NCBI GenBank assembly: GCA_001464935.1
Contig: LNEL01000046.1
Coordinates: 3,590 to 67,589, forward strand
Reading direction: 5' to 3'
DNA length: 64,000 bases
From: Gammaproteobacteria bacterium Ga0077536
Lineage (GTDB): Bacteria > Pseudomonadota > Gammaproteobacteria > Ga0077536
In this document: positions 6,801 to 23,279 of the stretch, piece after piece
Numbering within the stretch: position 1 is the stretch's first letter
How the letters are laid out: each line of letters opens with the position of its first letter
Position numbers and translations under genes: made by a program
Notes under the pieces: model-generated
Databases searched by the model: none
The model's input: only the letters and a program-made list of their open reading frames with translations
What the model was told of the DNA's origin: nothing

Positions 6801-8439
6801 CGGGGCTGCCGGCCGTGCCGGCCGGCATGTCGAAGCTGAACAGCGGTGCAGTCGCGGTCGAGAAATCGCTCGTGAACGATCCGCAGCCGGCGCTGATCGT
6901 CGGCACCGGCGTGGCGACGGCGGCGACGCCGCCGGGCAGGTTGTCGGTGAAACTCACGCCGGCGAGCGTGCCGCCGGTGAAGTTGCGCACGGTGACGGTG
7001 TAGGTCACGAGATTGCCGGGCGCGACGGTCGTCGGGCTGACGGCCTTGCTGACCGTCAGCTGGTCGTTGACCGTCACCGTGTCCGACGCGGCGGGGCTGA
7101 TGAAGCCGTCCGTGTTGCCGACGGCGCCGGCGGCGATGCTGTTGCTGAAGGTCTGCGGCGCACCGGCGACGGGCAGGGTCGCGGTGTAGGGCACGGTGAT
7201 CGTGCAGCTGCCGTTCGCGGGAATGGCGCCACCGGTGAGTTCGATGCCGGTGTTGCCGGCGGTGGCGGCGGACACACCGCCGCAGGTGTTGGTCACTGCG
7301 CCGGTGACGGCGAGGCCGGCCGGAGATCCGATCGGATCGTCGGTGAAATTGGTCAGGGTGATCGCAGTCGCCGGCCGATCGTTGCTGAGCGTGATCGTCA
7401 GATTCGTCTGCTGGCCGGCGCGCACCGGGTTCGGCGAAAAGGACTTCGCAACGCGCAGCGGTGAGTTGACCGTCAGCGTGTCGCTCGCGTTCGCGGTCGG
7501 CACGAGGCCGCGCGTGTTGCCGACGTCGGCCGCGTTCAGAGTGTTCAGCAGCGCCTGGCTGCCGGTGGCGCCGGCGGTGGTGCCGATGACGTCCACTTCG
7601 ATCAGACAGGTGCCGGAGCGGCCGATGGCGCCGCCGGTCAGCGTCAGCGTGGTGTCGCCCGCGTTCGGTGCGAACGTGCCGTTCGAACTGCCGGTGCCCG
7701 TGCAGTTCACGCTCGCGTTCGGCACCGGCGCCACTTCCATGCCGGCCGGCAGGTTGTCGGTGACGGTCGTCAACGGCAGGTTCGCCGTCGAGTTCGGATT
7801 CGTGATCGTCAGCAGCAGCGTCGACGGCTCGTCGTCCTGCACGACGCTGTCGGGCGTGAAGACCTTGGCCAGCGCGGGAGGCTGCAGCGTCAGCACCGTG
7901 AAGCTCTGCGCGGCAGCCGAGCCGTTGGTCTGCGCTGCGCCGTCGTCACCGGTGACGGCGCCGATCGGAATGGTGTTCGTCGGTGCGGTGCCGCCGGCGG
8001 TGGAGGTCACTTCGACCACGATGTCGCAGCTGCCGAGCGCGCCGCCGCCGGGCGCGGCCGGGATCGTGCCGCCGACCAGATCGAAGGTATTCGCGCCGAC
8101 GACCGCCGTGACGGTGCCGCCGCAGGTGTTCGCGATGAGACCGCCACCGGCGACCGTGATCGCCGCTGCGGCCATGTTGTCGGTGAACGCGACGTTGGTG
8201 ACGGCGGCGCCGGGGTTGTCGTTCGTCAGCGTGATGCGGAAGGCCGTGATGTCGCCGGGCACGATGGTGCTCGGGTAGGCCTGCTGCGTGTTGTCGATAC
8301 TCTTGGAGACGGCGATCGCGGCCCCGGCGTCGACGGCGACGACGGTCAGGAACAGGCCGGACAATGCCGCGACGAGCGCGCGTGCGCGACGGACAGGCGC
8401 GTTGGCGCGTGCCTCTGAAGACAAGTTGGTATGGGCCAA
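892..8439 (-). CDS. Giant surface adhesin-like protein with ~10 Cys-paired DUF11-like repeats, SdrD B-like repeats and DUF11 domains
   Basis: 2515 aa with signal peptide. Ten repeats of pattern xxK(S/A)FxPxxVxxGxxSxLTITxxN...TDxLPxG...TTCxG...C...NxIP, then IxGxVFxDxxxxG SdrD-B-like repeats and a C-terminal FDCSDLIGKVFDDQNLNGYQD region. Confidence 0.9.
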   Translation of the reverse strand: MAHTNLSSEARANAPVRRARALVAALSGLFLTVVAVDAGAAIAVSKSIDNTQQAYPSTIVPGDITAFRITLTNDNPGAAVTNVAFTDNMAAAAITVAGGGLIANTCGGTVTAVVGANTFDLVGGTIPAAPGGGALGSCDIVVEVTSTAGGTAPTNTIPIGAVTGDDGAAQTNGSAAAQSFTVLTLQPPALAKVFTPDSVVQDDEPSTLLLTITNPNSTANLPLTTVTDNLPAGMEVAPVPNASVNCTGTGSSNGTFAPNAGDTTLTLTGGAIGRSGTCLIEVDVIGTTAGATGSQALLNTLNAADVGNTRGLVPTANASDTLTVNSPLRVAKSFSPNPVRAGQQTNLTITLSNDRPATAITLTNFTDDPIGSPAGLAVTGAVTNTCGGVSAATAGNTGIELTGGAIPANGSCTITVPYTATLPVAGAPQTFSNSIAAGAVGNTDGFISPAASDTVTVNDQLTVSKAVSPTTVAPGNLVTYTVTVRNFTGGTLAGVSFTDNLPGGVAAVATPVPTISAGCGSFTSDFSTATAPLFSFDMPAGTAGSPGLCTITFSAQTPLAATAGTNFDNVLPANTVKTAGTCGAGAICNSGPSDTARTTIVNTAPLAKAFSPGTLSEGGVSQLTITLSNNSANTLTGVDLTDTLPSLAGPPLTQVVIASPANASTTCAGGPTITATPGASSVRIQNATIPARTGGGLGAPGSCVLRVNVSGPAGSYTNIIPANSLVATETLPDASTRAVTFPNDTSAPLTLTPALTASKAFAPATVQAGGVSRLAVRLGNIGTGTLSNVSFTDPLPADMTIASPPNAATTCAGAPVLGATAGAASFTLTGAEIPPGGQCEALVDVTASSGANSVNTIPPGNVTAAGGVQNTTPVTATLAKSAGGVVVNKSINPNSITAPGQAATATLTLLNTGGLALTNLAVTDFFTTNGLSSGTLNGMRVAATPAATTTCPGGVVTATTNGTQFSLAGAQLAASGNAGDSCTVSVDVTTTVVGTIQNTIPANAVTTAEGVTNTLSTVSSLATLARLGTQKSFTPPTIAPGQRSRLRLRFINPLAVPLTAIDVTDTLPAGLVVPPGANPTTTCVGGSVTAPTTTSVRVSGGTLPAAPTGGTTSCDAEIDVFAAAAGTFENVIPAGAVTALAGGVPIANEPPDVTATLEVRAAAGIAKTLVPAVVAPGSPSTLTITISNPNTVNLTAASLTDTLPAGLAVALVPNASTTCGGATVAVTAPASATSVSLAGATIPAGGACQFRVDTVSNTPGNYVNTIPASALSSAEGVTNDEPATDDVTVSSPPTIAKAFNPPSINAGGTSTLTIELGNENATALTLTADLIDTLPTAPGNLVVATPNGLAGTCTLGSVTATAGSGFVRYANGATIPAGGCTISVNVTGATNGTHSNFIAANALQTNGGSNPAPATADLVVSPLGFIAGRVFKDNNLTPDGTFQSGTDDPIANQTITLTGTDFGPDGVAGGGDDVAVSRSVVTDALGNYAFTGLNAGSYTVTEPTQPPGTQNGITTAGPIVGAAGGTAGTASAIGTAPSAISNIVLNRDGGGLVSNSPDNDFAEVATSSIAGTVFLDQNNNGVRNGADSVIPGVTIELLDAGGTVIATTVTDASGNYSFTTLAPGTYSVREPAQPPQTSNGQTIAGAVPNGGTPGTPTAVAVTPSRISNIVLPPNTASVNNNFAEIPNGRVISGRVFLDFDDSGAVNGPDHGITGQTLTLTGTDINGNPVTATTTTGADGSYAFTGLPPGTYTVTQPAQPAGTNNGQTIPGSTGGTGTAVGVVPSAISAIDLTGTNTISADNDFAETLGNATDLTIAKSNAPTQFAANSSLGNYALVVSNIGSLASSGVITVTDTLPVGITAVAAPTDAPWTCGVSGDRRTVTCTTSAVAAANGGALPAINLRVAIAAGLEGQSLINVATVAGGGEAAGLDGNNTANNPVQLQPGATISGSVWHNTITRDTTQQTGEPGLEGWIVEAVRGGVVVATATTDANGRYTLTGLPPTTNAGEVYELVFRHPVSRAQYGNPVSNEPGVDLTGRTIANLTLNPGQNIIEQNLPLDPSGVVYDSVTRLPVSGATVTFTGPAGFNPAVHLLGGTGNVTQVTDATGFYQYILLPGAPAGTYGIQVTPPGGYLPTPSGNLPPQPGALTVGPLPNPFLVSPSGAPPPVGSPAVYFFSFVLSGGSADVLNNHIPLDPILSGALVISKTSPLVNVTRGDLVPYTITARNTLSSPLTNIDVRDQLPPGFKYRLGSGSINGAPIEPLVDGRLLNWQAQTFAAGETKTYKLILIVGVGVGEGEYVNQAFGINTLANSQVSNLATATVRVVPDPTFDCSDLIGKVFDDQNLNGYQDQGEPGIPNVRLATVNGLLITSDDEGRFHVACAAIPQMDRGSNFVMKVDERTLPTGYRLTTENPRDVRVTRGKMTKINFGAALHRVVRIEVTSDAFNDDGTSLKPEWGAQVTALLEQLKEKPSLIRIAHRAENTVQAAALAADIRQRWEAQDCCYPLTVELEVWGALP

Positions 8440-8779
8440 GCCCGCGATCCCCTGCTGGCGACGCCGGCCGTGGCCGTCATCGCCCCCTATCCTTTATCGA
8501 TACGCCGGGGAGTGTGGCGGGCTGGTGAATGTGCGTGCGACCAGCCCTGGTCTCCGTCGGCGCGACCCCTGCGCCCGCTGTTCGTCGATGTTTCGATCTG
8601 TTTGATGCGTCGCGGTCGGCAGTCTAGCAACTGCGGAATCGGCAGCGCGAGGGCGTTATTTGGCCAATTTGGGCCTGAATTCAGCTGATTTCGCTTGAAT
8701 GGCTCGTGCCAGTTCGATTCAGCGCAAAACAATGTCACGACGGCCGTGGCGCCTGCTCACCCGGCATAAGTCGAATGCA

Positions 8780-9325
8780 TTAAGCGTCTCGCGCTGGCCG
8801 CCCGCTGCCGAGCACCTCCGCTACGACGGCCCAGGCCGCCCGCTTGCGCGCTTCGGGAATCGACGCGTTCGCCGGACTCGTCGAGGGCAGGCTCAGGTAG
8901 TCGAGCGTGTGGGCCGCGACCGATGGCGCCACGTGGCGCCGGAAACTCGCGGCGGCGGTCGCGCCGTTGAAGCACACGGTGGTCAGCCGGCGATGGCGCG
9001 CGAAGAAGCCGGCGAAGTCGTTGACCACGATGCTGCGCGCGTCGATGCGGGCATCGAGGCTGCCGGGCCGGCGACAGGCGCCAATCACGTCCCACAGCGC
9101 GACGCCTGCGGCCTTGAGGGCCCGCACGCGCGCGGCGTACGGCAGCGCCGGATCGAAGTCGAGCAGCTCGGCCAGCAACGGCCAGAAGAGATTGCGCGGA
9201 TGCGCATAGTACTGACCGGCGGCAAGTGACGCCGCGCCCGGCATGCTGCCGAGGATCAGCACGCGCGCCGCCGGGTTGGCGATCGGAGGCAGACCTTGCA
9301 GCAGTGGGCCGGTCACGCACAGCAC
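8780..9325 (-). CDS. DNA-deoxyinosine glycosylase (uracil-DNA glycosylase superfamily)
   Basis: LILGSMPGAASL..QYYAHPRNLFW, LWDV, GSLD, FNG and LPSTSPANA motifs. Confidence 0.9.
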   Translation of the reverse strand: MLCVTGPLLQGLPPIANPAARVLILGSMPGAASLAAGQYYAHPRNLFWPLLAELLDFDPALPYAARVRALKAAGVALWDVIGACRRPGSLDARIDARSIVVNDFAGFFARHRRLTTVCFNGATAAASFRRHVAPSVAAHTLDYLSLPSTSPANASIPEARKRAAWAVVAEVLGSGRPARDA

Positions 9326-9398
9326 CTCGCGTCGGCGGTGGAGGATGAAGGCGGCAGTCTAAATGGCCGATCGCCAATCCGCGCCACTCACGGAATCC

Positions 9399-9523
9399 GC
9401 TGACGCAGGAAACCCGACGCGCACGCCCTGACGGCGCTGCCGGCCCGTGCTCGAGGTCGCCGCCGGCCGGGAGCGATGGGGTGCTGCCGGAAACGCCGAC
9501 GCTGGGCTTCCTGCGTCAGCCCA
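9399..9523. repeat. REP family B inverted doublet (degenerate)
   Basis: GCTGACGCAGGAAACCCGAC ... CTGGGCTTCCTGCGTCAGCCCA; matches the copy at 51628-51766. Confidence 0.7.
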
Positions 9524-9568
9524 CCGGTGATGAGTCCGCTGCCTCGCCCGGCGCTGATGAGAGCTCAG

Positions 9569-9658
9569 GTAGCCCGGGTGCAACGCAGTGGAACACGGGA
9601 TCTGCGCGAGCTGACCGGCCGCTCCCGGGATCCGCGCTGCGCGCTACTCCCAGGCTGC
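9569..9658. repeat. REP family A inverted doublet (degenerate)
   Basis: GTAGCCCGGGTGCAACGCAGTGGAACACGGGA ... TCCCGGGATCCGCGCTGCGCGCTACTCCCAGGCTGC; GTAG head. Confidence 0.65.
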
Positions 9659-9819: not shown

Positions 9820-10494
9820 ATGAAGTCGCAGTCCGTGGTTGCGCCACGACGCAACAAGTCCCGCTCATTACAGAGGCCGTCAGAGATGCCGGGCACACGC
9901 GCTTCGAAACCGTCCAGAGACGGTGGAGAAGTGCCGATCAGGATCGGAACGCGCCTGAAGCATGCGCGCCTGGTCAAAGGCTACCTGATCCGCGATGTCG
10001 CGAAACAGTCGGGCTGCTCCGTCAGCCTGATCTCGAAGATCGAAAACGATCACGTCACGCCGTCACTGACCCTGCTGCATCGCCTTGTCGGCGTGCTCGA
10101 GATCAATATCGGCGCGCTGTTCGAACAGCCGGACGATTCGCTCGGCATCGTGTTTCGCAGCGGCGCGCGGCCCGTCATCGCTGTCAACGACGGCACCGCC
10201 GACGGCGCAAGCGTCAAGCTCGAGCGCATCGTGCCCTATGGCGACGGCCATCTGCTGCAGGGAAATGTGCACATCATCGAGCCCGGTGCCGGCAGCGCCG
10301 GCGGCATGCGCCATGTCGGTGAGGAAGTGGGCTATGTGCTCGAAGGCAGCCTGGCGCTGACCGTCGATGGCCAGACCTTCCAGCTCGAGTCCGGTGACGC
10401 CTTCGTGTTCAATTCGAACCGCGAACACAGCTACCGCAATCCCGGCAGCACGGTGACACGCGTGCTCTGGATCAACACGCCGCCGACATTCTGA
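9820..10494 (+). CDS. XRE-family HTH transcriptional regulator with C-terminal cupin
   Basis: IGTRLKHARL..VAKQSGCSVSLISKIEND..PSL HTH; HVGEEVGYVLEG and HSYRNPG cupin motifs. Start uncertain (9820 or 9886). Confidence 0.88.
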   Translation: MKSQSVVAPRRNKSRSLQRPSEMPGTRASKPSRDGGEVPIRIGTRLKHARLVKGYLIRDVAKQSGCSVSLISKIENDHVTPSLTLLHRLVGVLEINIGALFEQPDDSLGIVFRSGARPVIAVNDGTADGASVKLERIVPYGDGHLLQGNVHIIEPGAGSAGGMRHVGEEVGYVLEGSLALTVDGQTFQLESGDAFVFNSNREHSYRNPGSTVTRVLWINTPPTF

Positions 10495-10516: not shown

Positions 10517-11620
10517 TCAACCCTTGAGCCAGGCAGGCGCGCCGGGGCGTTTGATCGGCCGGCCGCCAATCATGGCGCCGGCACCGACCGCCTTCGAACG
10601 CACGGGGCGCGTGCGGCCGGGATCGGCGAGATGCATGAACGCGTCGAGCGAGCGCCGGATGCGGGCTTCCGGGAGACCGTCGACGATGAACACGAGGCGC
10701 GACAGTCGCGCATCTTCGCGCCAGCGGGCGAGATGCAACGGCGGATGCACGACGTGCTGCACGCCGTGGACAGCGACCGGCCCGGCCGCGCCGGCGACGT
10801 GCAGCAGACCCTTCACGCGCAGGATGCGCGTGCCGTGCGCGTGCAACAGCATCGTCAGCCAGATCCCGAACACCGTCCAGTCGAGCGCCTCGAAACGCAG
10901 CCATGAAAACGACTGCAAGCCGCCTGCGTCCGGCGCCGCGCCGTGCCGCAGCGGTTCGCGCAGCCAGCGCAGCGCCTGCGGCAACGTCGCTCCCGGATCG
11001 TGTTCGACGTCCGCGAGGAGTGCTGCCGGTGCGAGCCCCGCAGCGCCCGAATGGATCGCCGCGACGCCCGGATTGAGTCGGGCCACGAGGGCGTCCGTCG
11101 CCGCAATCTCGGCGGGGGTCGCGAGGTCGACTTTCGTGATCACCACGCGATCGGCGAGCGCGAGCTGCCGTTGCGCTTCGGGATGACGGGCAAGCGTCGG
11201 GCCCGCATGCTGGGCATCGACGGTGACGAGCGTGCCGTGGAACGTGAGCGCCGTGGTCACGCGCGGATCGGACTTCAACGTGTGCACGATCGGCACCGGA
11301 TCGGCCAGGCCACTGGTTTCGATGATCAGACGCCGGAACGCCGGCAAGGTGCCGGCCGCGCGACGTTCGATCAGCCGCCCGATGGTCACCGCGAGATCCT
11401 CACGCACCGTGCAGCACACGCAGCCACCCTGCAGCACGACGGTTTCCTCGTCCGCGCTCTCCAGCAGATGATGGTCGAGCCCCGCCTGCCCGAACTCGTT
11501 GACGATCACCGCTGTGTCGACGAAGTCCGGGTGACGCAACAGCGTGCGCAACAGCGAGGTCTTGCCGCTGCCGAGAAAGCCCGTGAGCACGTACAGCGGC
11601 AGGCGCTCGCCCGCGCTCAT
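10517..11620 (-). CDS. CobW/COG0523 GTPase metallochaperone
   Basis: LTGFLGSGKT, VNEFG, GGCVCC, ETSGLADP, ITKVD and a CobW_C region with LRVKG..HGVQH. Confidence 0.92.
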   Translation of the reverse strand: MSAGERLPLYVLTGFLGSGKTSLLRTLLRHPDFVDTAVIVNEFGQAGLDHHLLESADEETVVLQGGCVCCTVREDLAVTIGRLIERRAAGTLPAFRRLIIETSGLADPVPIVHTLKSDPRVTTALTFHGTLVTVDAQHAGPTLARHPEAQRQLALADRVVITKVDLATPAEIAATDALVARLNPGVAAIHSGAAGLAPAALLADVEHDPGATLPQALRWLREPLRHGAAPDAGGLQSFSWLRFEALDWTVFGIWLTMLLHAHGTRILRVKGLLHVAGAAGPVAVHGVQHVVHPPLHLARWREDARLSRLVFIVDGLPEARIRRSLDAFMHLADPGRTRPVRSKAVGAGAMIGGRPIKRPGAPAWLKG

Positions 11621-11943
11621 CGCGGCGCGGCCTCGAGCCGCGCGAGGAGGCCGTCGTCGAGCGGGTCGCAGACGGCACCGGACAGTCGCTCGGCGGCCGC
11701 CCAGATTCCGTTCAGGTGATACACGCTCTCGGATTTGCCGGCCGCATTCTCGAGCACGTACGACGACGCGCCCCAGTCCTTCAGGGTCAGGCCGAAGGTC
11801 TCGAGCACGCCGTTCGCGAGCTGCGCACGGCGCGCATGCTCGTGACGCTGCGACACTTTCGTGCCGTCCGCTTCGAACTCGGGCCGGCCGGCGGCGTCGG
11901 TCCAGTAACGGCTGCTGCCGAGCACGGCACACAGGGCACACAT
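11617..11943 (-). CDS. Small conserved protein with N-terminal CxxC (MCALCAVLG...CDPLD)
   Basis: Stop overlaps the CobW start; GGGAGAG RBS upstream; Cys motif. Confidence 0.7.
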   Translation of the reverse strand: MCALCAVLGSSRYWTDAAGRPEFEADGTKVSQRHEHARRAQLANGVLETFGLTLKDWGASSYVLENAAGKSESVYHLNGIWAAAERLSGAVCDPLDDGLLARLEAAPR

Positions 11944-11959
11944 CGCTGCTCTCCCGCGC

Positions 11960-12871
11960 TCAGGCCGGCATGTAGTCGGCCGGAAACTCCGGCCGCCGGC
12001 CTTCGTAGTAGGGCAGCACGTCGACACGCGGCGTATGCAGGCCGTCGGCGATCACCTGGCGCGTGTGCGCCGCGACCTGCTCACCGGTCGCGAACCACAC
12101 GTCGCCCTTCGCCTTCATCTCCCTGATCATGTCGCGCACCATCATCAGGCGCGCGACCTGTCCGCTGCAGAACGGATGGAAGCAGTTGACCCAGAATCCG
12201 TTGTACTCCCACATGGCCTCGAACTCGGCCATGTAGACCTCTTTCGCGCGCTGCGGCGACTGGATCGGCATCATGTAGTCGAGATCGGCGTTGTGCACGA
12301 ACTGCGGCCAGTCATCGAGCTGGATGTTGCCCGGCAGTTCGATCAGATCACCCTTGTCGCATTTGATCAGGTGCGGTACATCAGCGCCCATCAGCGAGCA
12401 GTCCCAGGTGAAGCCCTCTTCAATCAGGATCTCGAGCGAATACTTCGAGAACTTGTACCACGGCGCGCGGTAGCCGACGGGCCGCTTGCCCGTGATGCTC
12501 GCGAGGGCGTCCACACCGCGCTTCGTCCAGTAGCGCTCCTTGTCGCGCGTCATCTCGTTCGGATACTCGTGCAGGTACCCGTGATGCGCGACTTCGTGGC
12601 CTTCGGCGATCATCATCTTCACCGCTTCCGGATACTGCTCGGCGCACCAGCCGGGCACGAAGAAGCTGTGCTTCACGCCGAGCTCGTCGAGCACGCCGAG
12701 AATGCGCTCGACGGCGATCAGCGGGCCGTAGCGCAGCATCGAAGCGGTCGAGATCCGGGTGTCCGCATCGTTCGGATGCGCGAGATGCAGGATGCTGTCC
12801 GCATCCATGTCCCAGGTGAAGGTCACCGCGCAGCGCGCGCCGTTGGGCCAGGGGACGGGATTCTTGATCAT
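11960..12871 (-). CDS. Polysaccharide deacetylase family (PuuE/PgdA-like amidohydrolase)
   Basis: WPNGARCAVTFTWDMD, FFVPGW, HHGYLHE, GYRAP, DDWPQF and HPF motifs. Confidence 0.9.
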   Translation of the reverse strand: MIKNPVPWPNGARCAVTFTWDMDADSILHLAHPNDADTRISTASMLRYGPLIAVERILGVLDELGVKHSFFVPGWCAEQYPEAVKMMIAEGHEVAHHGYLHEYPNEMTRDKERYWTKRGVDALASITGKRPVGYRAPWYKFSKYSLEILIEEGFTWDCSLMGADVPHLIKCDKGDLIELPGNIQLDDWPQFVHNADLDYMMPIQSPQRAKEVYMAEFEAMWEYNGFWVNCFHPFCSGQVARLMMVRDMIREMKAKGDVWFATGEQVAAHTRQVIADGLHTPRVDVLPYYEGRRPEFPADYMPA

Positions 12872-12944
12872 GACGGAGCTCCTTCGATGGTGACGCGCTG
12901 ATGCGCGCCGGAAAATTCAGGGGTGGCGGAACGCACGACAGCGC

Positions 12945-14099
12945 TCACGCGACGCCCCAGCGCCGCGCGAGGTCGACATAGATGTCGCGCGCGGCGCACA
13001 GGCTGTCGATCGCACACCATTCGTCGGTCTGATGCGCCATGCCGGCTTCACCGGGCCCGAGGATCACGGTGGGCACGCCGCCGAAGGCCGGCGTCAGCAC
13101 TGACGCGTCGGTGAAATACGGCGCGCTGCGCGGCTGCGGGCGCTCGCCGAGATGGCTCGCGAGCAGGTCGAACACGCTGACCACCCACGGCTGTGCGGCA
13201 TCGGTGTAGATGCCGGGCAGGTCCAGCAGCGGCTCGAGCTCGACGTCATCACCGAGACAGTGCCGCAGTTCGTGCAACACGCGCTGGTGGCCCTGCTCGG
13301 GCAGCGTGCGGATATCTATCTCGAGAATCGCCTCGTCCGGCACCATGTTGACGTTCACACCACCGTGCAGGGTGCCGACGTTTAGCGTCGGCAGGCCCAG
13401 CGCTTCACTACGGTGAACCTTGAAGCGGAACGCCGCGAGCTTCTGCACGGCATTCGCCGCCTTGTAGACGGCATTGACGCCGAGGTGGGGCATCGCGCCA
13501 TGGGCCGCCACGCCCGTGGTCCGCGCCCGCAGCCACAGTGCCCCGCGATGACCGAGCAGCGGGTAGTTGCCGGTCGGCTCGCCGACGACTATCGCGCCCG
13601 CCTGGCCCAGCGCATCGCCGCAGCTCGCCAGGTGCTGCGCACCCTGGCAACCTGATTCTTCGGAGGCGGTCAGCACCAACGTAAGGCCGGGCCCGCGGCC
13701 CGCATGCGGGGCCAGTTCGAGCGCCGCGCAGACCATCGCGGCGATCCCGCCTTTCATGTCAGCGCTGCCGCGACCGTACAGGCGGCCGTCCTCGATCTCG
13801 CCGCCGAACGGCGCCTTCGACCATGGCTGCGCGCCGAGCGGCACGGTGTCGAGGTGGCCAGTGAAACACAGCGGCGCGCGATCAGCGCGGCCGGTGAGCG
13901 TCGCGACCAGGTTGGTGCGGCCCGGCGCATGTTCGAAAGCCTGCACGTGCAGGCCGCCACCTTCGAGCAGGCCCGCGAGGTGCAGCGCGCAGGCGCGCTC
14001 CGGGCTCTGTGCGTTCACCGTGTCGTAGCGCACCAGGGCCTGGGTGAGGCCGACGACATCGGGCAACGCCGGCGTCTGCGCCGGCATCGGCACGCTCAT
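12945..14099 (-). CDS. M20 family metallopeptidase/amidohydrolase (ArgE/DapE-like)
   Basis: GHLDTVP, GRGSADMKGG, SEE, GEPT and AHQTDE motifs; start overlaps the RidA stop. Confidence 0.92.
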   Translation of the reverse strand: MSVPMPAQTPALPDVVGLTQALVRYDTVNAQSPERACALHLAGLLEGGGLHVQAFEHAPGRTNLVATLTGRADRAPLCFTGHLDTVPLGAQPWSKAPFGGEIEDGRLYGRGSADMKGGIAAMVCAALELAPHAGRGPGLTLVLTASEESGCQGAQHLASCGDALGQAGAIVVGEPTGNYPLLGHRGALWLRARTTGVAAHGAMPHLGVNAVYKAANAVQKLAAFRFKVHRSEALGLPTLNVGTLHGGVNVNMVPDEAILEIDIRTLPEQGHQRVLHELRHCLGDDVELEPLLDLPGIYTDAAQPWVVSVFDLLASHLGERPQPRSAPYFTDASVLTPAFGGVPTVILGPGEAGMAHQTDEWCAIDSLCAARDIYVDLARRWGVA

Positions 14100-14512
14100 T
14101 CGGGCAGCACGGCGATGGCCTCGGCCTCGATCAGGGCATCCGCGTAGATCAGGCCCGCCACACGCACCGCGGTCGCTGCCGGCCCCGGCGCACGCAGGAA
14201 CTCCATGCGCACGCGCGTCATCTTCTCCCAGAATTCCTTGACCGCCGCCGGCGTGCCGTCGAACACGTAGTAGGTGTTCAGCTTCACGACGTGTCGCCAA
14301 TCGGCGCCAGCCTCGGCCAGCACCTTCGAGATGTTGCCGAAGACGTTGCGCGTCTGCGTTTCGATGTCGCCGACACCGATGATGTTGCCCTCGCCGTCCG
14401 CTGACATCTGACCGCCGACGAGAATGACGCGACCGAGCTGCCAGCCCTGTGACATGGCCACCGGCATCGACCAGTACCAGTGATCCTGCGGTTCGAGACG
14501 TTTGACGATCAT
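14096..14512 (-). CDS. RidA/YjgF family protein
   Basis: GGQMS..GDIETQTRNVF..VVKLNTY..PAATAVRV..LIEAEAIA; ATGA-coupled to the beta-subunit gene. Confidence 0.88.
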   Translation of the reverse strand: MIVKRLEPQDHWYWSMPVAMSQGWQLGRVILVGGQMSADGEGNIIGVGDIETQTRNVFGNISKVLAEAGADWRHVVKLNTYYVFDGTPAAVKEFWEKMTRVRMEFLRAPGPAATAVRVAGLIYADALIEAEAIAVLPE

Positions 14513-15495
14513 GCCGGCTGCACCCCGCAGGCCTGCTGCAGTTCACGCAGACCACGCTTCACCGCGGCGGCCGCCTCTGGCACGCCCGGCAGTGCCGCGC
14601 ACCAGGCGTCGATCGCCGTGTCCGCCAGCGGCTGCCAGCGCGCGAGGATCGTCGCGATCGCCGCGTCGTTCGGCGCGTGCTGCAAGGTGAGCGCGACGAG
14701 GGCCTGGGTCCAGCGCTGCGAACGCTCGCTGTCGCGCCACTCGGCTTCGAGCAGCATCGCCGTCAGCGTGTCACCGGCATCGCGCGCGGCGCGTGCGAGC
14801 TGGCGGCAGCGGCACAGATCGAAGGCCGGCTTGGCGACGACGTTCAGGGCGATCACGTGTTCGCCCCAGTCGTAGGTCGCGAGCAGCTTCTCAAGCAGTT
14901 CGCGAAAGCCCTGCCATGCCGGGTCGTCCTCCCACAGCGCGCGCTCGGCGCCGAAGCCGAGATCGGGGCAGGCCACCTGCAGTTCGCGCGTGCGATAGGC
15001 CAGCCGGCTGATCCATCGATACTGATCGGCGCCCTGGAAGGCCGCGCAGTTCGTGATCGTGCTGGCGGGTGCCATCTGTACGACATAGGCCGCCGCCATC
15101 TGCAACGCATGCAGTGGATAGCGGGCGGCGGTATACAGCCGCGGCAAGCCCTTCAGCCATGCCGGGTCGAGTGCCAGATCGTGCTCGTTGCGCGCGTGTT
15201 CCTCGAGCAGACCGTCGACATATTCCTCGTGTCCGTCCTGCAGCACGTTGTACTGGCGGTAGATCAGTTCGTCCGGATCGCGGAAGGCGTCCCAGTCCGG
15301 ATGCTGCAGCACGCTGCCGCCGACGTGTTCGCGGTAGAAGCGGTTCATGAAGAGCTCGGGCGAGAGTTCGTAGGCATAGCCCGGATGTCGCGTGCGCGTG
15401 TGCAGGTTGTAGCTGACGACTTCGTATTCGGTCGGCCGGCGCCGGCCGCCGGCGAGCGTCGTCCAGGTCTTCAGGCCGTTGGTCGCTGTGTTCAT
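14509..15495 (-). CDS. Aromatic/alkene soluble diiron monooxygenase hydroxylase beta subunit (TmoE-like)
   Basis: LKTW..RRRPTEYEVVSYNLH, DWDAFRDPDEL.YRQY, RYPLHALQM..QMAPASTITNCAAFQ, WEDDPAWQGFRELLEK. Confidence 0.92.
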   Translation of the reverse strand: MNTATNGLKTWTTLAGGRRRPTEYEVVSYNLHTRTRHPGYAYELSPELFMNRFYREHVGGSVLQHPDWDAFRDPDELIYRQYNVLQDGHEEYVDGLLEEHARNEHDLALDPAWLKGLPRLYTAARYPLHALQMAAAYVVQMAPASTITNCAAFQGADQYRWISRLAYRTRELQVACPDLGFGAERALWEDDPAWQGFRELLEKLLATYDWGEHVIALNVVAKPAFDLCRCRQLARAARDAGDTLTAMLLEAEWRDSERSQRWTQALVALTLQHAPNDAAIATILARWQPLADTAIDAWCAALPGVPEAAAAVKRGLRELQQACGVQPA

Positions 15496-15526
15496 CGGTG
15501 ACTCCGCATGGCGTGGGTGGGCGCGC

Positions 15527-15832
15527 TCAGGCCGCGGCGGGCGCGCTGTTCAGCACGAAGCGGACCGAGTCAGTGCTCGTGCGGATGAAACCGGCAAAGC
15601 CCGGCATGTTCACTTCGAGCTCCCGCATCTGGAACGGGCGGCCCAGCATTCGTTCGATAGTCGCGCGATGAATCACGCATTCCTGTTCGACGCGCACGCG
15701 CAGATAGGAGGTGTGCTCGACGATCAGGATCTCCTTGCCCGGATTGTCCTCGCGGATGGCGTCGATCACGGCGTCTGCTATCTCGCCCTGGCGCAACACC
15801 GGGCCGGCGTATTTCTTCGTGGCTGCATTCAT
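15527..15832 (-). CDS. Monooxygenase effector/coupling protein (MmoB/DmpM, TmoD-like)
   Basis: GPVLRQGEIADAVIDAIREDNPGKEI..YLRV..LGRPFQMRELEVNMPGFAG. Confidence 0.92.
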   Translation of the reverse strand: MNAATKKYAGPVLRQGEIADAVIDAIREDNPGKEILIVEHTSYLRVRVEQECVIHRATIERMLGRPFQMRELEVNMPGFAGFIRTSTDSVRFVLNSAPAAA

Positions 15833-15843
15833 CTCGGGTTCCT

Positions 15844-16185
15844 TCAGGTCAGACTGGCCACCGCGCCGGGCGCAACGGCCGACAGGTCGACATAGACGTC
15901 GTCACCATCGACTTCGACGGGATAGGCGATCAGGGCGCAGCGCTTGGGATTGACGCCGGCGCCGGTCGCCGCATCGAAGCGCCAGCGGTGCGCGCTGCAG
16001 GTGATCACGCCATCGTCGAAGCTGCCGTCGATCAGGGCCACCGCCTGGTGCGGGCAGCGCGGGTGATAGGCGCGCACGCCGGCGGCGGTGTTCACCACCA
16101 GCACTTCGACGTCGCCAGCGGTGAGCACGCGCATTTCGCCTTCCCACACGTCGTCGAGGGTGCAGACTTTCAGGCGCGCGCTCAT
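15844..16185 (-). CDS. Rieske [2Fe-2S] ferredoxin (TmoC-like)
   Basis: KVCTLDDVWEGEM, CPHQ and CSAHRWRFD...TG.GVNP motifs. Confidence 0.93.
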   Translation of the reverse strand: MSARLKVCTLDDVWEGEMRVLTAGDVEVLVVNTAAGVRAYHPRCPHQAVALIDGSFDDGVITCSAHRWRFDAATGAGVNPKRCALIAYPVEVDGDDVYVDLSAVAPGAVASLT

Positions 16186-16472
16186 GCGTCGTTCCGTACC
16201 GCCGCGAGCACGCGCGGTTCGCGATAGATTTCGATCGTCTCGAGTTCGATGAAGCCGGCTTCGGCGACGGTCAGGGTCGGCGGCAGCGGCTCGGTCGCGT
16301 CCGGCAGGCGCACGCGCAGCCGCTCCGTCGGCGCCACCGGGCGCACGACGACGCCGGCGAGCAGGTCGGCGGCCACGGCACACACGTCGTCCATCGTCGA
16401 ACTGCGGTCGACCATCAGCACCTTGAAGCCGTAGTCGCCCTCGAATCCACATACCACTGGAAAGTTGCTCAT
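16182..16472 (-). CDS. Monooxygenase hydroxylase gamma subunit (TmoB-like)
   Basis: FPVVCGFEGDY..VDRSSTMDDV..LRVR..LP..LTVAEAG pattern; position between alpha subunit and ferredoxin. Confidence 0.85.
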   Translation of the reverse strand: MSNFPVVCGFEGDYGFKVLMVDRSSTMDDVCAVAADLLAGVVVRPVAPTERLRVRLPDATEPLPPTLTVAEAGFIELETIEIYREPRVLAAVRNDA

Positions 16473-16491
16473 GCCGGGTTCCTCTTCCGGG

Positions 16492-17994
16492 TCAGGTGCC
16501 CGTTGCGCGGCGGGTCGTCAGCGCGTCGTCATAGGCTTCGACCCACGCGTAGTTCGTGCCCTCGATGCCATACTCCTCCGGCGCCATGTTCATGTGTTCC
16601 ATCACGCCGTCGGGCGCGACGATGCCCTGCGCGACGCGATCGATCAGGCTCAGGTGACCGGCATAGCGCTCCGGCTCCTGCTCGAAGATCCATTTGTCGA
16701 CGACCGACTGGAAGTGATAGCGACGCCCCTGGTAGTCGAGCGTGTGATCCTTGAGGTTCCACTTCCTGCCGGGCACGCCGGTCAGCTCGAGGCCGTGCAT
16801 GTTGCACAGCATGGGCAGGGTCTTCGGGATCGTGCTGTCGAGGCGGCCGGCGCGGATGTTCTCGATGATCACGTCCCAGACCTGGCCGAAGGTGTCGTTC
16901 CAGCCCGGGTATTTCTCCTCGAGCCAGGCGCGCTCAGCGGGATTGGTGCCGGCAATCGGGTGCCACCATTCGGTCGGGCGGTACAGGTAGATGCCGAGCT
17001 GCTGGGCGTGATGGAAGACTTCGATGTCTTCGAGCAGCAGATCCCAGTACCAGGGCTTCTCCATGCCCATGTCTTCGAGCTTGGCGACGAACTGGTCGAG
17101 GATCCACTCGTTCATGAATTCCTTGAACGAGCCTTCGCGCTTGTCGAGCGGGGTGTAGTAATCCATGCAGGTGCCTGACAGTGCCGAGAACTGCTTCCAG
17201 CAACGCCAGAACGAGATGTCGATGAGCTTCTGGGCCTCGGCCTTGCGACCGCTGTCGATCATCATCTTCAGCAAGGGTTCGCCGATCTGCGCGTGGCGCG
17301 CCTCGTCGGACTGGATTGACTGCAGCATCGTGGAGAAGCTGAAGTCGCCGCAGTTCGCGGCATCCGCCGACAGCGCGATGAACTGCAGGTTGGTGAACGC
17401 GGTCTCGAACGCGAAATTCGTCATGATCGCAGCGCTGATCGCGTCGCGCGTGTGCTCGAGGTCGTCGAAGGTGTGACGTTCGCTGATGATCACCCAGTTG
17501 TCGGTACGCGGCGCCTTCTGCGCCCAGTCGAAGGTGCGACTCTTCGCGAGATATTCATAGGCGAAATACAGATGCACCTGCGCGTGGCGCATTTCATCGA
17601 GACTGCCGAAGGTCGCCATGTTGCGCATGCCCGGCGCACGACCGAAGCGCGTCATGCGCGCGAAGGCTGACACCGAGTGGTATTCGAGAAAGCTCACGGC
17701 GCCGAAATGCATCTGCAACAGCGCCTTCCAGCCCGGTGACGCATTCTCGTACATCTGCGAGCGGGCCAGCGCCGCCTTCACCGAATAGGCGCCGACGTCC
17801 TTCTCACGCTGCGTCTTCACGTAGTCGCGGTACGTGACCTTGTACGGTTCATCGAAGGTCTCGAGCAGTTCGAGCGGCATCTCGAGCACGTCACTCAGCT
17901 CTTTCGGGAACAGGGCCTGCTCGGAGACGTAACGCGGCGTCCAGTTGGTGTCGCGCGCGATGTCGTACCAGTCTTCGCTGTTCAACAGGGCCAT
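16492..17994 (-). CDS. Soluble diiron monooxygenase hydroxylase alpha subunit (TmoA/TouA/IsoA group)
   Basis: 500 aa from MALLNSEDWYDIARDTNWTP; diiron motifs LEY, DEMRH, FETAFTN, DEARH; WLEEKYPGWNDTFG; C-terminal YHS-like region. Confidence 0.95.
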   Translation of the reverse strand: MALLNSEDWYDIARDTNWTPRYVSEQALFPKELSDVLEMPLELLETFDEPYKVTYRDYVKTQREKDVGAYSVKAALARSQMYENASPGWKALLQMHFGAVSFLEYHSVSAFARMTRFGRAPGMRNMATFGSLDEMRHAQVHLYFAYEYLAKSRTFDWAQKAPRTDNWVIISERHTFDDLEHTRDAISAAIMTNFAFETAFTNLQFIALSADAANCGDFSFSTMLQSIQSDEARHAQIGEPLLKMMIDSGRKAEAQKLIDISFWRCWKQFSALSGTCMDYYTPLDKREGSFKEFMNEWILDQFVAKLEDMGMEKPWYWDLLLEDIEVFHHAQQLGIYLYRPTEWWHPIAGTNPAERAWLEEKYPGWNDTFGQVWDVIIENIRAGRLDSTIPKTLPMLCNMHGLELTGVPGRKWNLKDHTLDYQGRRYHFQSVVDKWIFEQEPERYAGHLSLIDRVAQGIVAPDGVMEHMNMAPEEYGIEGTNYAWVEAYDDALTTRRATGT

Positions 17995-18103
17995 CGTGCC
18001 TTCTCCTCTCGCGGGTTGGTCGGGCAGGCGGGTGGACACTCGTCGACCGGCCTGGTCGCCCGGGGTGCACGCGGCGACAGTGTATTCAACTCGGTTTCTG
18101 TAT

Positions 18104-18119
18104 AGCGAAAGCTGTGCCA
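18104..18119 (-). promoter_or_regulatory. Sigma54 (-24/-12) promoter of the monooxygenase operon
   Basis: Minus strand TGGCACAGCTTTCGCT = GG-N10-GC with TGGCAC head, about 110 bp upstream of the alpha-subunit start. Confidence 0.7.
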
Positions 18120-18895
18120 TGCCGCGGACAAAAGCGCCAAAGCCTATAAAAACCGTGCCTTGGCGCGATTTCCCCGGCGGACGCGGCGCGGCGGCCCGCT
18201 GCCGGACGCACCGCTCGCGTGCGACAGGGCAGCGCGGGAGTTTATTTTCGTGCAACTCGCTTTCCGGCCGTGCCGGCCGCAACCGGCGCGCTCGCCCCTG
18301 GCTGGCGGCCTGAGGTGGACGAGACCGCCCGCGTCACCGGGCCTGATTCCCGCACAGGCAGTTCCGCGCGGCGGGGCACCCGCGGTCTTGCGTCTGCGTC
18401 GCCCGCACACATCGCACAGCGGCGCGCGCCACCGGGCTGACGTCCCGTCGTTGACGGCGTGTCGCGGCCTGAGCGGTCAGCGCGCCGCTGAACACGAGGC
18501 GCCATCTCCATGGCGAAGCGACGTGCACCGTCAGCGTGGTGCACGTGACTTCGACTGGTGCAATTTCGCCGCGATGTCGCCGATGAGGTGCGAGGCACGT
18601 CGCATGCACCCGAGCGCGATGCACGCATCATTGCATCCAGACGCGCGCCGACATGTCGCAATCGGCAGTGCATTGCACATTTCTTGATCGAGCCTTCAGC
18701 TGTCCTGCGCCGGGCGTTTTTTACAAACGCATGAATTGATTCGTGTTGCACGAGTGGATCGATTCATGCACCTGTCCTCGCCGATCGCTGATTACCGGCG
18801 AGTGTTCAAAAAGTAGTGCGGCAGGGAATGCGAGCAGTGACGCGGCGTCATTTTGGCGCATCTCGCGAAGGGGCTCGCATCAATCGGAGGGTTTG

Positions 18896-20668
18896 ATGAA
18901 CAAGAATGAAAGAACGGCAGTCCGGCAATCGCCAACGACATACGCGCGTCGCGCGCCAGGCAGTACGCTGCGCGCACTGGCGCTCGGCATCGCCATCGCG
19001 TGTACGCCCGTCGCGCAGGCGCTCGACATCGTCGACATCACGATTCAGGAAATCGAGGCAGGGCTCGCCTCCGGCGCGTTCACTGCGGTCGATCTCTACA
19101 ACGCACACATGGAGCGCATCAACAAGTTCGAAGGCACGTACAACGCTTTCACCTTCTTCAATCCGACCGCGCTCGCCGAAGCAGAAGCACTCGACGCCGA
19201 GTACAAGCTGACCGGCGCGCGTTCGCCGCTGCACGGCGTGCCGATCGTGATCAAGGAAGCGATGGACGTGAAAGGGCTGCCCTCGACGGCCGGTTACGAC
19301 CGCTTTTACAGCGGCACGGGCGGCATCGACCTGATCCCGGAAACGGATGCGCCGGTTGTCGCGCGGCTGCGTGAAGCGGGCGCGATCATCATTGGCAAGA
19401 CGAACATCCCGGAGTTCAGCCGCAGCGGCAACAACGCGAGCACGAGCTGGGACGGCGACACCTTCAACGCCTATGACATCACGCTGCAGCCGGGCGGCAG
19501 CAGCTCGGGCACCGCGATGGCGGTGGCGGGCAGCTTTGCGGTGGTGGGCACGGCCGAAGAAACCGGCGGTTCGATTCAGAACCCCGCCTCGGCGCACAGC
19601 CTCGCGAGCGTGAAGACCACCAACGGGCTGATTCCGAACAGCGGCGTCGCGCCGTTGTCCGGCGCCACCCGCGATGTCGTCGGCCCGCACGCGCGCACCG
19701 TCTACGATGCCGCCGTGATGCTCGACGTGATGGCCGGTTATTCGCTGGCGGACGAGAAGACGATGGCGTCGGTGGGCAATATCCCGAAGGACGGCTACGT
19801 CAGCATGCTGTCGACGACCGCACTCGAAGGCAAACGCTTCGGCATGATTGGGGACGGCTGGCGCGCCCGCATCATGGATCCGACCAACGCCAACAGCATC
19901 GCGCCGGAAACCCTGGCGATGTACAACCAGGCGATGGCCGAGATGGAAGCGGAAGGTGCCACGTTCGTCGAAGACCCGTTCGCCGGTACTGACTTCAGCG
20001 CCCTGCGCGCGGCCATTCCGAACGCGGCGGCGTCGAACCCGTTCTACTTCGAGAAGTGGCTCGAACGCATGGGTCCGAGCATGATCGCGAACAAGACAGC
20101 GGCTGAGAACGGCATCAGTTCGATTGCGGCACTCGGCATGCTCGGCATTTCGCCGTTCGATCCGGGTGAGTCCTTCGCGACGACGCCGACGAACTTCCCG
20201 CTCGAATTCGCGAACCCGGACGTGCCGCCGAACATCGAGGCCTTCTTCGAAGCGCGCGCGGAACTGATCTCGCTGTTCAACAGCGTGCTGGACGCGCATG
20301 ACCTCGACGGTCTGTTCTTCCCGCAGGCCGTGCGCCCGGTGCCCGATCTCGGTGGCGCTGGCATAGGTGCGACGACGGTCTCGGAGATCAACATCGTCGG
20401 CCTGCCCGGCGTCACGGTCTCGGGTGGCTATTACGATGACGGCTCGCCGTTCAGCGTGATCTTCGTCGGCAAGCAGTGGTCGGAAGGCTCTCTGCTGTCC
20501 TTCGCCTACGACTACGAGCAGGCGACGATGCATCGGATAGCGCCTACCCTGGTGGCGCCGGTGCCGGTGCCGGCCGCGCTGCCGCTGTTTGCCGCGGCCC
20601 TGATCCCGCTGGCGCGCTACCGCCGTCGCGTGGTCGGCGCCCGGCTGAATCAGCGGTTCGCCGTCTGA
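18896..20668 (+). CDS. Secreted amidase-signature enzyme with VPLPA/PEP-CTERM-like sorting tail
   Basis: SPLHGVPIVIKE, GKTN, GGSSSG, ETGGSIQNPA; signal peptide; ends PVPVPAALPLFAAALIPLARYRRR; GGAGG RBS before ATG 18896. Confidence 0.88.
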   Translation: MNKNERTAVRQSPTTYARRAPGSTLRALALGIAIACTPVAQALDIVDITIQEIEAGLASGAFTAVDLYNAHMERINKFEGTYNAFTFFNPTALAEAEALDAEYKLTGARSPLHGVPIVIKEAMDVKGLPSTAGYDRFYSGTGGIDLIPETDAPVVARLREAGAIIIGKTNIPEFSRSGNNASTSWDGDTFNAYDITLQPGGSSSGTAMAVAGSFAVVGTAEETGGSIQNPASAHSLASVKTTNGLIPNSGVAPLSGATRDVVGPHARTVYDAAVMLDVMAGYSLADEKTMASVGNIPKDGYVSMLSTTALEGKRFGMIGDGWRARIMDPTNANSIAPETLAMYNQAMAEMEAEGATFVEDPFAGTDFSALRAAIPNAAASNPFYFEKWLERMGPSMIANKTAAENGISSIAALGMLGISPFDPGESFATTPTNFPLEFANPDVPPNIEAFFEARAELISLFNSVLDAHDLDGLFFPQAVRPVPDLGGAGIGATTVSEINIVGLPGVTVSGGYYDDGSPFSVIFVGKQWSEGSLLSFAYDYEQATMHRIAPTLVAPVPVPAALPLFAAALIPLARYRRRVVGARLNQRFAV

Positions 20669-23243: not shown

Positions 23244-23279
23244 GTGTGCGCCCGGCCACGGCACGCGGCGTGGCGCGTG

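Follow-up and report, generated by a model that had tools for sequence, protein, structure and literature searches.

A conserved gene cluster joining a toluene-monooxygenase-type diiron oxygenase to Rid and amidohydrolase genes: a probable route for freeing nitrogen from small ring compounds

What does an enzyme system built like toluene monooxygenase do when its genes continue not into a reductase gene but into a series of putative hydrolase genes? This question is raised by a stretch of 64,000 nucleotides (hereafter, the window) of contig LNEL01000046.1 from Gammaproteobacteria bacterium Ga0077536 (assembly GCA_001464935.1), in which the subunit genes of a soluble diiron monooxygenase (SDIMO) are followed by genes for a Rid-family protein, an M20 deacylase, an amidohydrolase of the CE4 (polysaccharide-deacetylase) fold, a small MCxLC (CxxC) protein and a COG0523 GTPase. 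The original prediction, made from the sequence letters, took this arrangement for a catabolic pathway acting on a nitrogen-containing (hetero)aromatic compound rather than on toluene. The analysis presented here establishes that the cluster is a real, conserved and uncharacterised gene-cluster family; because many bacteria from soil, fresh water, the sea and sponges share this set of genes, it probably represents an undescribed route that frees nitrogen from a small nitrogen-containing ring compound.

Ten intact and tightly packed open reading frames (ORFs), delineated by ORF calling and Pfam searches, occupy the minus strand from 17994 down to 10517 (Table 1). Inspection of the junctions in the sequence revealed ATGA overlaps between the beta-subunit and Rid genes, between the Rid and M20 genes and between the MCxLC and COG0523 genes, with remaining intergenic gaps of 1 to 73 nt; thus, the ten genes constitute one unit. 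Two start codons were adjusted in the course of this analysis, the M20 start being revised to 14099 (an ATG overlapping the Rid stop) and the GTPase start being set at 11620. The A-B-C-D-E subunit order (alpha, gamma, Rieske ferredoxin, MmoB/DmpM effector, beta), which the original prediction had likened to tmoABCDE, is confirmed by Pfam matches and coordinates for every named gene. The same is true of the ATGA coupling of Rid to the beta subunit, and of the tail of Rid, M20, deacetylase-fold, CxxC and CobW proteins behind it (the CxxC protein as an ORF only); the genes are real, but their reading direction had to be corrected to the minus strand.

Table 1. Features of the operon and its immediate surroundings (positions within the window)
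Feature	Position	Strand	Remarks
Alpha subunit, diiron hydroxylase	16492..17994	-	500 aa; Pfam Phenol_Hydrox 3.1e-68 + YHS
Gamma subunit, TmoB family	16182..16472	-	96 aa; Pfam TmoB 9.1e-17
Rieske [2Fe-2S] ferredoxin	15844..16182	-	112 aa; Pfam Rieske 8.4e-16
Effector/coupling protein, MmoB/DmpM family	15527..15832	-	101 aa; Pfam MmoB_DmpM 4.9e-26
Beta subunit, hydroxylase	14509..15495	-	328 aa; Pfam Phenol_Hydrox 1.9e-64
Rid-family protein without the RidA arginine	14096..14512	-	138 aa; Pfam Ribonuc_L-PSP 4.5e-19
M20 ArgE/DapE-type deacylase	12945..14099	-	Pfam Peptidase_M20 1.3e-29 + M20_dimer
Cytosolic CE4 amidohydrolase (polysaccharide-deacetylase fold)	11960..12871	-	303 aa; Pfam Polysacc_deac_1 1.9e-18
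Small MCxLC (CxxC) protein	11617..11943	-	108 aa; no Pfam or NCBIfam match
COG0523 (CobW/ZigA-like) metallochaperone GTPase	10517..11620	-	Pfam cobW 2.3e-44 + CobW_C 1.5e-20
Sigma54-type motif TGGCAC-N5-TCGCT (GG-N10-GC), TGGCACAGCTTTCGCT	18104..18119	-	125 nt before alpha ATG
Convergent XRE helix-turn-helix (HTH) + cupin regulator, PuuR-like	9820..10494	+	start uncertain; Pfam Cupin_2 5.5e-20, HTH_3

The oxygenase, its relatives and its electron supply

Among solved structures, the best matches of the window alpha subunit are TouA (1t0q, 630 bits) and TmoA (609 bits), with far lower scores for phenol hydroxylases and methane monooxygenases. Relatives of this subunit were taken as the 80 best loci from a scan of species-representative genomes and combined with the window and six plasmid-borne references, among them XamoA of Xanthobacter Py2 and the protein annotated as IsoA in Mycobacterium sp. 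ELW1, which served as outgroup; the resulting tree of 87 alpha sequences was computed by an IQ-TREE quick search, with supports from the Shimodaira-Hasegawa-like approximate likelihood ratio test (SH-aLRT). In this tree the window pairs with a Steroidobacteraceae metagenome-assembled genome (MAG; locus L011, 75% identity) inside a 42-row clade (SH-aLRT 99), whose sisters are three alphaproteobacterial MAGs and then two actinomycetes, and 33 betaproteobacterial-type toluene-monooxygenase-like rows form a separate clade. Constraining the window into this latter group, which was named after the tree had been seen, is strongly disfavored by the approximately unbiased (AU) test (-188.5 lnL, log-likelihood; p-AU 6.6e-81). 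TmoA and TouA, which are absent from the tree, were placed indirectly through bit scores: L067, a Thauera locus within the toluene-monooxygenase-like clade, reaches 861 bits against TouA and 857 bits against TmoA, versus 630 and 609 bits for the window, and thus the two characterised enzymes belong with that clade and not with the window. Nesting of alpha among characterised toluene monooxygenases had been named beforehand as the outcome that speaks against the original prediction; by tree, AU test and PDB scores alike, no nesting with the TmoA/TouA type is observed. Apart from the missing linked reductase, the oxygenase has all the sequence features of a toluene-monooxygenase-type SDIMO; it falls outside the characterised TmoA/TouA clade. 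Public protein collections contain many members of its clade, all of them named "toluene monooxygenase system protein A" or "YHS domain-containing protein".

The active site combines strict conservation with a consistent, clade-specific departure. Residue numbering of the window alpha subunit equals that of TouA to about residue 460, and the six iron ligands of the two E...EXXH motifs (E104, E134, H137, E197, E231 and H234) are conserved in the window and in all 42 clade rows, T201, N202 and Q228 being invariant in the alpha alignment as well. At the same time, 25 positions hold one residue throughout the clade and another throughout the toluene-monooxygenase-like clade. The clade-fixed changes A106H, A107S and E111F are located on the helix that bears ligand E104, and further ones include P145A, M181H, A209S, I224L, S225Q and L268Q. 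Near the diiron site, small apolar residues give way to His, Ser or Gln, a shift that would suit a polar substrate, although it is no proof of one. In toluene 4-monooxygenase (T4MO) and toluene/o-xylene monooxygenase (ToMO), residues 100, 103 and 107 are reported from mutagenesis to line the substrate pocket.

Linkage of the remaining genes to this clade was counted by tblastn of the window proteins against all loci. Within the 41 clade loci found through alpha, a Rid gene is present in 37 and a CE4 gene in 33 (three of the loci that lack them are short contigs), and none of the 39 loci outside the clade contains Rid, CE4 or M20; homologous clusters therefore do retain the Rid/hydrolase tail. 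A second scan, starting from CE4, yielded 46 loci and added seven clade loci (two of them from cultured strains), which are biased towards CE4 presence and bring the clade to 48 loci. Across these 48, Rid is present in 44, CE4 in 40, the Rieske ferredoxin in 27, M20 (at least 35% identity) in 12, MCxLC in 9 and COG0523 in 9; an AsnC regulator accompanies 30, a binding protein of an NMT1/SsuA-type ABC transporter 31, and arginase-family genes (two per locus) 12. The core of the family is thus the combination of monooxygenase, Rid and CE4, and this linkage spans Alpha-, Beta- and Gammaproteobacteria.

Cultured carriers of the cluster are Zavarzinia aquatilis HR-AS, Pusillimonas caeni KCTC 42353, Limibacillus sp. 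MBR-115 and Rhodospirillaceae bacterium N.6G, which makes the question of the substrate directly testable. The Zavarzinia and Pusillimonas strains display the order alpha-gamma-ferredoxin-effector-beta-reductase-Rid (multi-domain)-CE4-MCxLC-COG0523, with the XRE-cupin regulator or M20 after COG0523, and strain N.6G has the same genes from alpha through reductase, Rid (multi-domain) and CE4 without the MCxLC/COG0523 continuation. The closest relative, L011, has an arylformamidase-type cyclase, i.e., a second kind of metal amidohydrolase, in the CE4 slot. As a separate observation, a group of alphaproteobacterial MAGs (L001-L019) shows no Rieske ferredoxin or reductase near the hydroxylase and carries a triple Rid gene and CE4 upstream of alpha.

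Closer to home, the distribution is patchy: a CE4 ortholog (E <= 1e-40) was found in none of 40 relatives of the window genome (0/12 of the same genus and 0/12 others of the same family), and thus the cluster is sporadic among them. Such a pattern is expected of an accessory trait, and, taken together with a window operon containing neither a transporter nor a downstream central-pathway gene, it lends some color to a non-catabolic role, namely, hydroxylation and then deacylation of an antibiotic or another natural product that contains nitrogen, in order to tailor or detoxify it. We consider this role quite unlikely, since no biosynthetic core genes (nonribosomal peptide synthetase, polyketide synthase, etc.) lie beside any annotated locus, and the uptake ABC transporters, AsnC- and PuuR-like regulators and urease/arginase-family neighbours of the clade typify nutrient use.

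The lack of a reductase, which the original prediction treated as a trait of this operon, stands as an observation (none is encoded in the window or elsewhere on its contig), but it is not special. A reductase gene is missing from 38 of the 48 clade loci and, in the 10 that have one, lies mostly between beta and Rid and in a few cases elsewhere in the cluster (e.g., L014), so that its absence is the rule of the clade and not a peculiarity of the window. Searching the 4.83-Mb, 92%-complete genome with a Fer2-FAD-NAD reductase from a relative's cluster gave matches in three places, none of them on the window contig. Two full-length reductases of this type directly follow phenol-hydroxylase-type clusters on contigs C59 and C37, and a Pyr_redox_2-type ferredoxin-reductase is encoded on contig C64; the genome-wide search for orphan reductases proposed at the outset thus yielded three unlinked candidates. 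An operon decaying into a non-working remnant after reductase loss is accordingly a highly improbable explanation: the window and contig do lack a reductase, and a dedicated one could be unassembled at 92% completeness, yet all ten frames are intact and coupled, the lack is shared by 38 clade loci, and the candidate reductases are available in the genome.

The predicted absence of catechol ring-cleavage genes from the window likewise holds: searches with Dioxygenase_C, Glyoxalase and LigB models detected nothing but a glyoxalase-family frame of 169 aa with a single domain, located at the far edge of the window. Outside the window, the genome has phenol-hydroxylase-type diiron clusters at C59:45583-49641 and C37:40786-46076, each with a reductase, and behind the C37 cluster lies a gene for a two-domain extradiol dioxygenase, which reveals an aromatic meta-cleavage route apart from the window operon.

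The hydrolytic module and a proposed route of nitrogen release

Judged by its sequence, the protein coupled to the beta subunit is a member of the Rid family that fails the RidA test. It scores 57 bits against TIGR00004 (cut-off 106), and in the alignment an Ala faces the Arg of the P-A-R motif of YabJ and PH0854. This arginine is present in none of 17 Rid domains of the cluster family (window, L011 and five triple fusions), where the position is occupied by A, V, M, T, G, L or Y; of the Rid paralogues elsewhere in the window genome, one has R and another has W at this position. According to the passages of Niehaus et al. 2015 (PMC4433059) that deal with this residue, the RidA arginine (Arg105 of E. 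coli TdcF) holds the carboxylate of the substrate, and imine hydrolysis is almost lost without it; the subfamilies Rid4 to Rid7, which are devoid of it, are described there as having an unknown activity. The premise that RidA proteins handle imines and enamines is thus not directly applicable to these 17 domains, and, because the carboxylate-binding arginine is missing, the Rid substrate in this pathway probably lacks an alpha-carboxylate. In most relatives, a single polypeptide of roughly 400 to 450 residues comprises three Rid domains (three Pfam stretches), an arrangement presumed in the same passages of PMC4433059 to form a covalent trimer. In a search of Atlas protein clusters, Rid retrieved generic RidA/L-PSP clusters only.

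The CE4 protein has no signal peptide and matches Pfam PF01522 at 67 bits (versus 23.1). Its best structural match is the uncharacterised entry 3rxz (235 bits), PuuE (3cl6) scores 58 bits, and against the PuuE model TIGR03212 it scores 65.1 bits with a cut-off of 424.6; the designation "PuuE-like deacetylase" is therefore correct as to the CE4 fold, but not as to closeness to PuuE. Residues D21, D23, D25, H97, H101, R135, P137, D186, D187, W188 and H232 are invariant in 62 relatives, and we take this set (Asp, His-x3-His, RxP, DDW, His) to be the metal and catalytic motifs of CE4 enzymes. A role in deacetylation of peptidoglycan or chitin was considered and rejected in view of the lacking signal peptide, the coupling to an operon of cytosolic enzymes and the association with monooxygenases. 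The M20 protein falls just short of TIGR01910 (215.3 bits, cut-off 217.6) and far short of the cut-offs of all ArgE/DapE equivalog models, its best PDB match being a DapE (141 bits).

The MCxLC protein, always encoded directly before COG0523, is invariant in 15 sequences at M1, C2, L4, C5, W14 ... P94, L95 and D96. A family search gave no Pfam or NCBIfam match and only "hypothetical protein" Atlas clusters, and its AlphaFold model (predicted local distance difference test, pLDDT, 78.4) has no Foldseek match in the PDB at E <= 0.001 (best E 0.28). In COG0523, the P-loop G15-x4-G20-K21-T22 and the GCxCC motif G67-C68-x-C70-C71 are invariant. A paralogous trio of CE4 (26% identity to the window protein), MCxLC (35%) and COG0523 (51%) is located on contig C57 of the same genome (L136, about 6177-9597) beside a TonB-dependent receptor and a PepSY_TM protein, in what looks like a metal-limitation locus. 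From this trio it seems that MCxLC and COG0523 serve CE4-type enzymes specifically. By adjacency and stop/start overlap, the two proteins may bind each other, and the pair probably loads metal into CE4.

An indication of what the module requires comes from loci in which another oxygenase takes the place of the diiron enzyme. In 7 of the 46 CE4-found loci (L095, L100, L102, L103, L106, L107 and L109), a two-component flavin monooxygenase of the HpaB family is encoded beside CE4; Pfam annotation covers L100, L102 and L107. All of the seven except L106, where no Rid was detected, have a triple-Rid gene, four contain MCxLC and/or COG0523, and no diiron enzyme occurs within the examined stretch of six, L103 having both. 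The nearest structures of the HpaB-type protein are chlorophenol/trichlorophenol/nitrophenol 4-monooxygenases and HpaB itself, at 175 to 184 bits (3hwc 184, 4g5e 180). Contig names reveal that three of the genomes with HpaB-type loci also contain an unlinked diiron enzyme of the sister clade. The HpaB stand-in, along with replacement of CE4 by a cyclase in L011, indicates that the hydrolase module needs some ring- or enol-hydroxylating oxygenase and then some metal amidohydrolase. We also observed that L107 and L109 each contain two HpaB-CE4 modules back to back.

Genes surrounding the clade loci provide a further line of evidence. An arginase-family pair lies beside the monooxygenase-Rid-CE4 genes in L039 (13699-17364) and L108 (10254-13799), adjoined by HypA- and HypB-like genes; two arginase-family subunits with such partners resemble, in our view, the Ni-dependent guanidine/metformin hydrolases. 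Hydantoinase/oxoprolinase A and B genes are found in 14 loci (the best model, caprolactamase, scoring below its cut-off), and urease structural and accessory genes as well as glutamine synthetase are among the neighbours. Transporters in these neighbourhoods are of SsuA/NMT1, PotF/PotD, NCS1 and Amt types, e.g., an Amt-family gene directly before alpha in L014 and an NCS1 permease near a phosphoribosyltransferase in L011, and the HpaB-type locus L107 contains a BiuH-like hydrolase (302 bits, cut-off 370) and a ureidoglycolate-lyase-like gene. Together, these neighbours suggest that ureides, guanidines or cyclic amides are scavenged for their nitrogen.

On balance, we favor, with somewhat better than even confidence, an oxygenase-initiated, hydrolytic nitrogen-release pathway for a polar nitrogen compound. 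A hydrocarbon is the less likely substrate, and a ring compound, such as a cyclic amide, ureide, guanidine or electron-rich N-heterocycle, the most likely one; both this substrate class and the chemistry of the individual steps we infer. In the proposed route, electrons from NADH would pass from an unlinked reductase via the Rieske ferredoxin to an alpha2-beta2-gamma2 hydroxylase tuned by the effector protein, and the hydroxylated product would be a lactam or a carbinolamine, or a tautomer of either. The metal-dependent cytosolic CE4 enzyme, metallated by COG0523 and MCxLC, would open or deacylate this product, an arginine-less Rid trimer would process an unstable, carboxylate-free product, the M20 deacylase would take off a remaining N-acyl or N-carbamoyl group, and nitrogen would be released as ammonia, urea or guanidine. 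Thus, of the original prediction, a pathway for a nitrogen compound is supported by the HpaB pairing, the nitrogen-scavenging neighbours and the polar clade-fixed residues, whereas its specifically heteroaromatic substrate is shown by no result.

Several observations weigh against this reading. With a TouA match of 630 bits and all catalytic residues intact, hydrocarbon oxidation is chemically possible, and a toluene-to-cresol enzyme would fit upstream of the two phenol-hydroxylase clusters, one of them with its extradiol dioxygenase. The nitrogen-related neighbours are found in marine relatives and not in the window, and they vary between loci; the window operon has no transporter of its own, and M20, MCxLC and COG0523 are each present in only 9 to 12 of the 48 clade loci. 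Moreover, with the arginine needed for the sole proven Rid chemistry (as presented in the above passages of PMC4433059) missing, the Rid step would be without precedent. Finally, in its main text, a 2025 SDIMO review proposes aromatic hydrocarbons as substrates of the uncharacterised toluene monooxygenase (TMO) subgroups A and B (PMC11825192); the same main text does not mention pyridine, hydroxypyridine, RidA, deacetylase or amidohydrolase. Our literature search, made in full texts, found no paper on a diiron or HpaB monooxygenase linked to Rid and deacetylase genes.

A competing explanation is an ordinary aromatic or alkene hydrocarbon monooxygenase whose downstream hydrolases are unrelated or accessory (metal supply, removal of toxic side-products). 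It can call on the TouA score, the identical gene order and every catalytic residue, on the database name "toluene monooxygenase system protein A", on the main-text view of PMC11825192 that hydrocarbons are plausible for uncharacterised TMO subgroups and on the phenol hydroxylase and meta-cleavage genes of the genome, which could take the product. Nevertheless, we regard it as unlikely. The Rid/CE4 linkage holds across three proteobacterial classes with 0/39 occurrences outside the clade, stop/start codon overlaps join the genes, the module also pairs with HpaB-type enzymes, which are no oxidisers of unactivated hydrocarbons, and genomes from open water and from sponges often carry the clade next to genes for scavenging nitrogen. 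In our assessment, a toluene pathway is very improbable for this cluster.

A further candidate substrate is an aromatic amine resembling aminophenol or aniline, or an N-acylated form such as an acetanilide. Here, a diiron or HpaB-type enzyme would hydroxylate the ring, CE4 and/or M20 would remove the N-acyl group, and the arginine-less Rid would hydrolyse a carboxylate-free quinone-imine, with the ammonia kept and the ring passed to pathways elsewhere. Toluene-monooxygenase-type and HpaB-type enzymes both attack activated aromatic rings; chlorophenol, trichlorophenol and nitrophenol 4-monooxygenases, the nearest relatives of the HpaB partners (3hwc and 4g5e), are known to displace para substituents. 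A Rid protein without the carboxylate-binding arginine fits a non-carboxylate imine, and phenol hydroxylases and ring-cleavage genes do exist elsewhere in the genome. However, ring-cleavage, hydroquinone or hydroxyquinol genes are linked in no annotated locus, the neighbours indicate metabolism of urea, guanidine and cyclic amides, and the transporters are of the four types listed above, which leaves a fairly small chance for an aromatic amine.

Returning to the nitrogen-release pathway, a more specific version of it can be envisioned, to which we assign a similarly small likelihood: the clade and its HpaB stand-ins may start a hitherto unrecognised, O2-dependent mineralisation of ring compounds of the cyclic guanidine or ureide kind, for instance creatinine, glycocyamidine, 2-aminoimidazol(on)e or hydantoin-like rings. 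Hydroxylation of a ring carbon, opening by CE4 and Rid-assisted carbinolamine breakdown would then give glyoxylate-type products plus guanidine or urea, to be cleaved by the neighbouring Ni-dependent arginase-family enzymes and urease. If this route is true, a whole SDIMO subgroup in genomes from the ocean and of sponge symbionts would serve nitrogen scavenging and not hydrocarbon oxidation.

Overall, if the clade does act on nitrogen compounds, "toluene monooxygenase" tallies from metagenomes of seawater, sponges, drinking-water biofilms and soil would misstate the potential for hydrocarbon degradation, and a new, oxygenase-initiated route would be added to the turnover of dissolved organic nitrogen. 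Both the arginine-less Rid proteins and the MCxLC/COG0523 pair would thereby gain a concrete context that is open to testing.

Regulation and further genes of the window

The sigma54-type motif predicted before the operon is present (Table 1). The pattern has two matches in the window versus 0.25 expected, and a like motif is found 99 nt before alpha in only one of 47 clade loci examined, that of the nearest relative L011. Genes for enhancer-binding proteins number zero on the window contig and at least 16 elsewhere in the genome. The end of the convergent XRE-cupin regulator gene is 22 nt from the last operon gene (COG0523); its product scores 95 bits against the PuuR model (cut-off 211), and an ortholog lies beside the cluster in 5 of the 48 clade loci.

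Divergent from the operon, positions 18743-20668 (+) encode an amidase-signature enzyme (Pfam Amidase 4.9e-63) with a signal-like N-terminal stretch and a C-terminus (VPVP, a hydrophobic segment, RRR) that looks to us like a PEP-CTERM sorting signal. Its membership in the pathway is unsupported, as the enzyme looks exported and has a single 31% match in related loci (L001). On the other side, a repeat-rich protein of 2515 residues with a signal-like N-terminus (892-8439, -) adjoins the regulator and UDG genes. Farther away, two adjacent genes encode TIR-domain proteins (22167-23243, +, and 23244-24479, +), the second fused to a formylglycine-generating-enzyme-like (FGE-sulfatase) domain, which may be a defence or signalling pair, and the closely spaced genes at 55372-57407 (-), apparently unrelated to the operon, encode an AMP-binding enzyme, a dioxygenase of the PhyH family and the alpha subunit of a Rieske ring-hydroxylating oxygenase.

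Comparison with known systems

The most immediate comparison is with ToMO (TouABCDEF) and T4MO (TmoABCDEF), which have the same subunit set and order and identical iron ligands and T201/N202/Q228 residues. Yet the window oxygenase belongs to a separate clade with 25 clade-fixed substitutions, and instead of a reductase its beta-subunit gene is followed by Rid, M20, CE4, MCxLC and COG0523, none of which is present in the 39 loci outside the clade.

A five-gene diiron precedent for a polar N-heterocycle is HpdABCDE, the 2-hydroxypyridine 5-monooxygenase of Burkholderia sp. MAK1, which we regard as the nearest functional precedent. No Burkholderia loci are among the 80 best alpha relatives. The hpd cluster reportedly continues with 2,5-dihydroxypyridine dioxygenase and maleamate-pathway genes; none of these was seen among the scanned window frames, although no search was aimed at such genes.

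With Rid4 to Rid7, the window Rid protein shares the fold and the missing arginine; Rid4 and Rid7 have W at its position, unlike the variable set of residues in the cluster family. The triple fusions treated in the above passages of PMC4433059 are of the RidA type and possess the arginine, whereas those of the cluster family do not.

The overall logic of the proposed route, in which an oxygenase, an amidohydrolase and a Rid protein together free ring nitrogen, is shared with the Rut pathway (RutA, RutB and RutC), whose RutC is stated in the pertinent part of PMC8113886 to be a 3-aminoacrylate deaminase. Against the RutC model (cut-off 169), the window Rid protein scores weakly at 37 bits, as does a triple Rid at 101 bits. 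All three Rut proteins belong to different families or subfamilies, with a flavin monooxygenase and an isochorismatase-type hydrolase in place of the diiron enzyme and CE4. PuuE allantoinase, a metal-independent enzyme of the CE4 fold that opens a small cyclic ureide, shares its fold family and cytosolic location with the window CE4 protein, which differs from it in keeping the Asp/His/His motif residues and in travelling with a metallochaperone.

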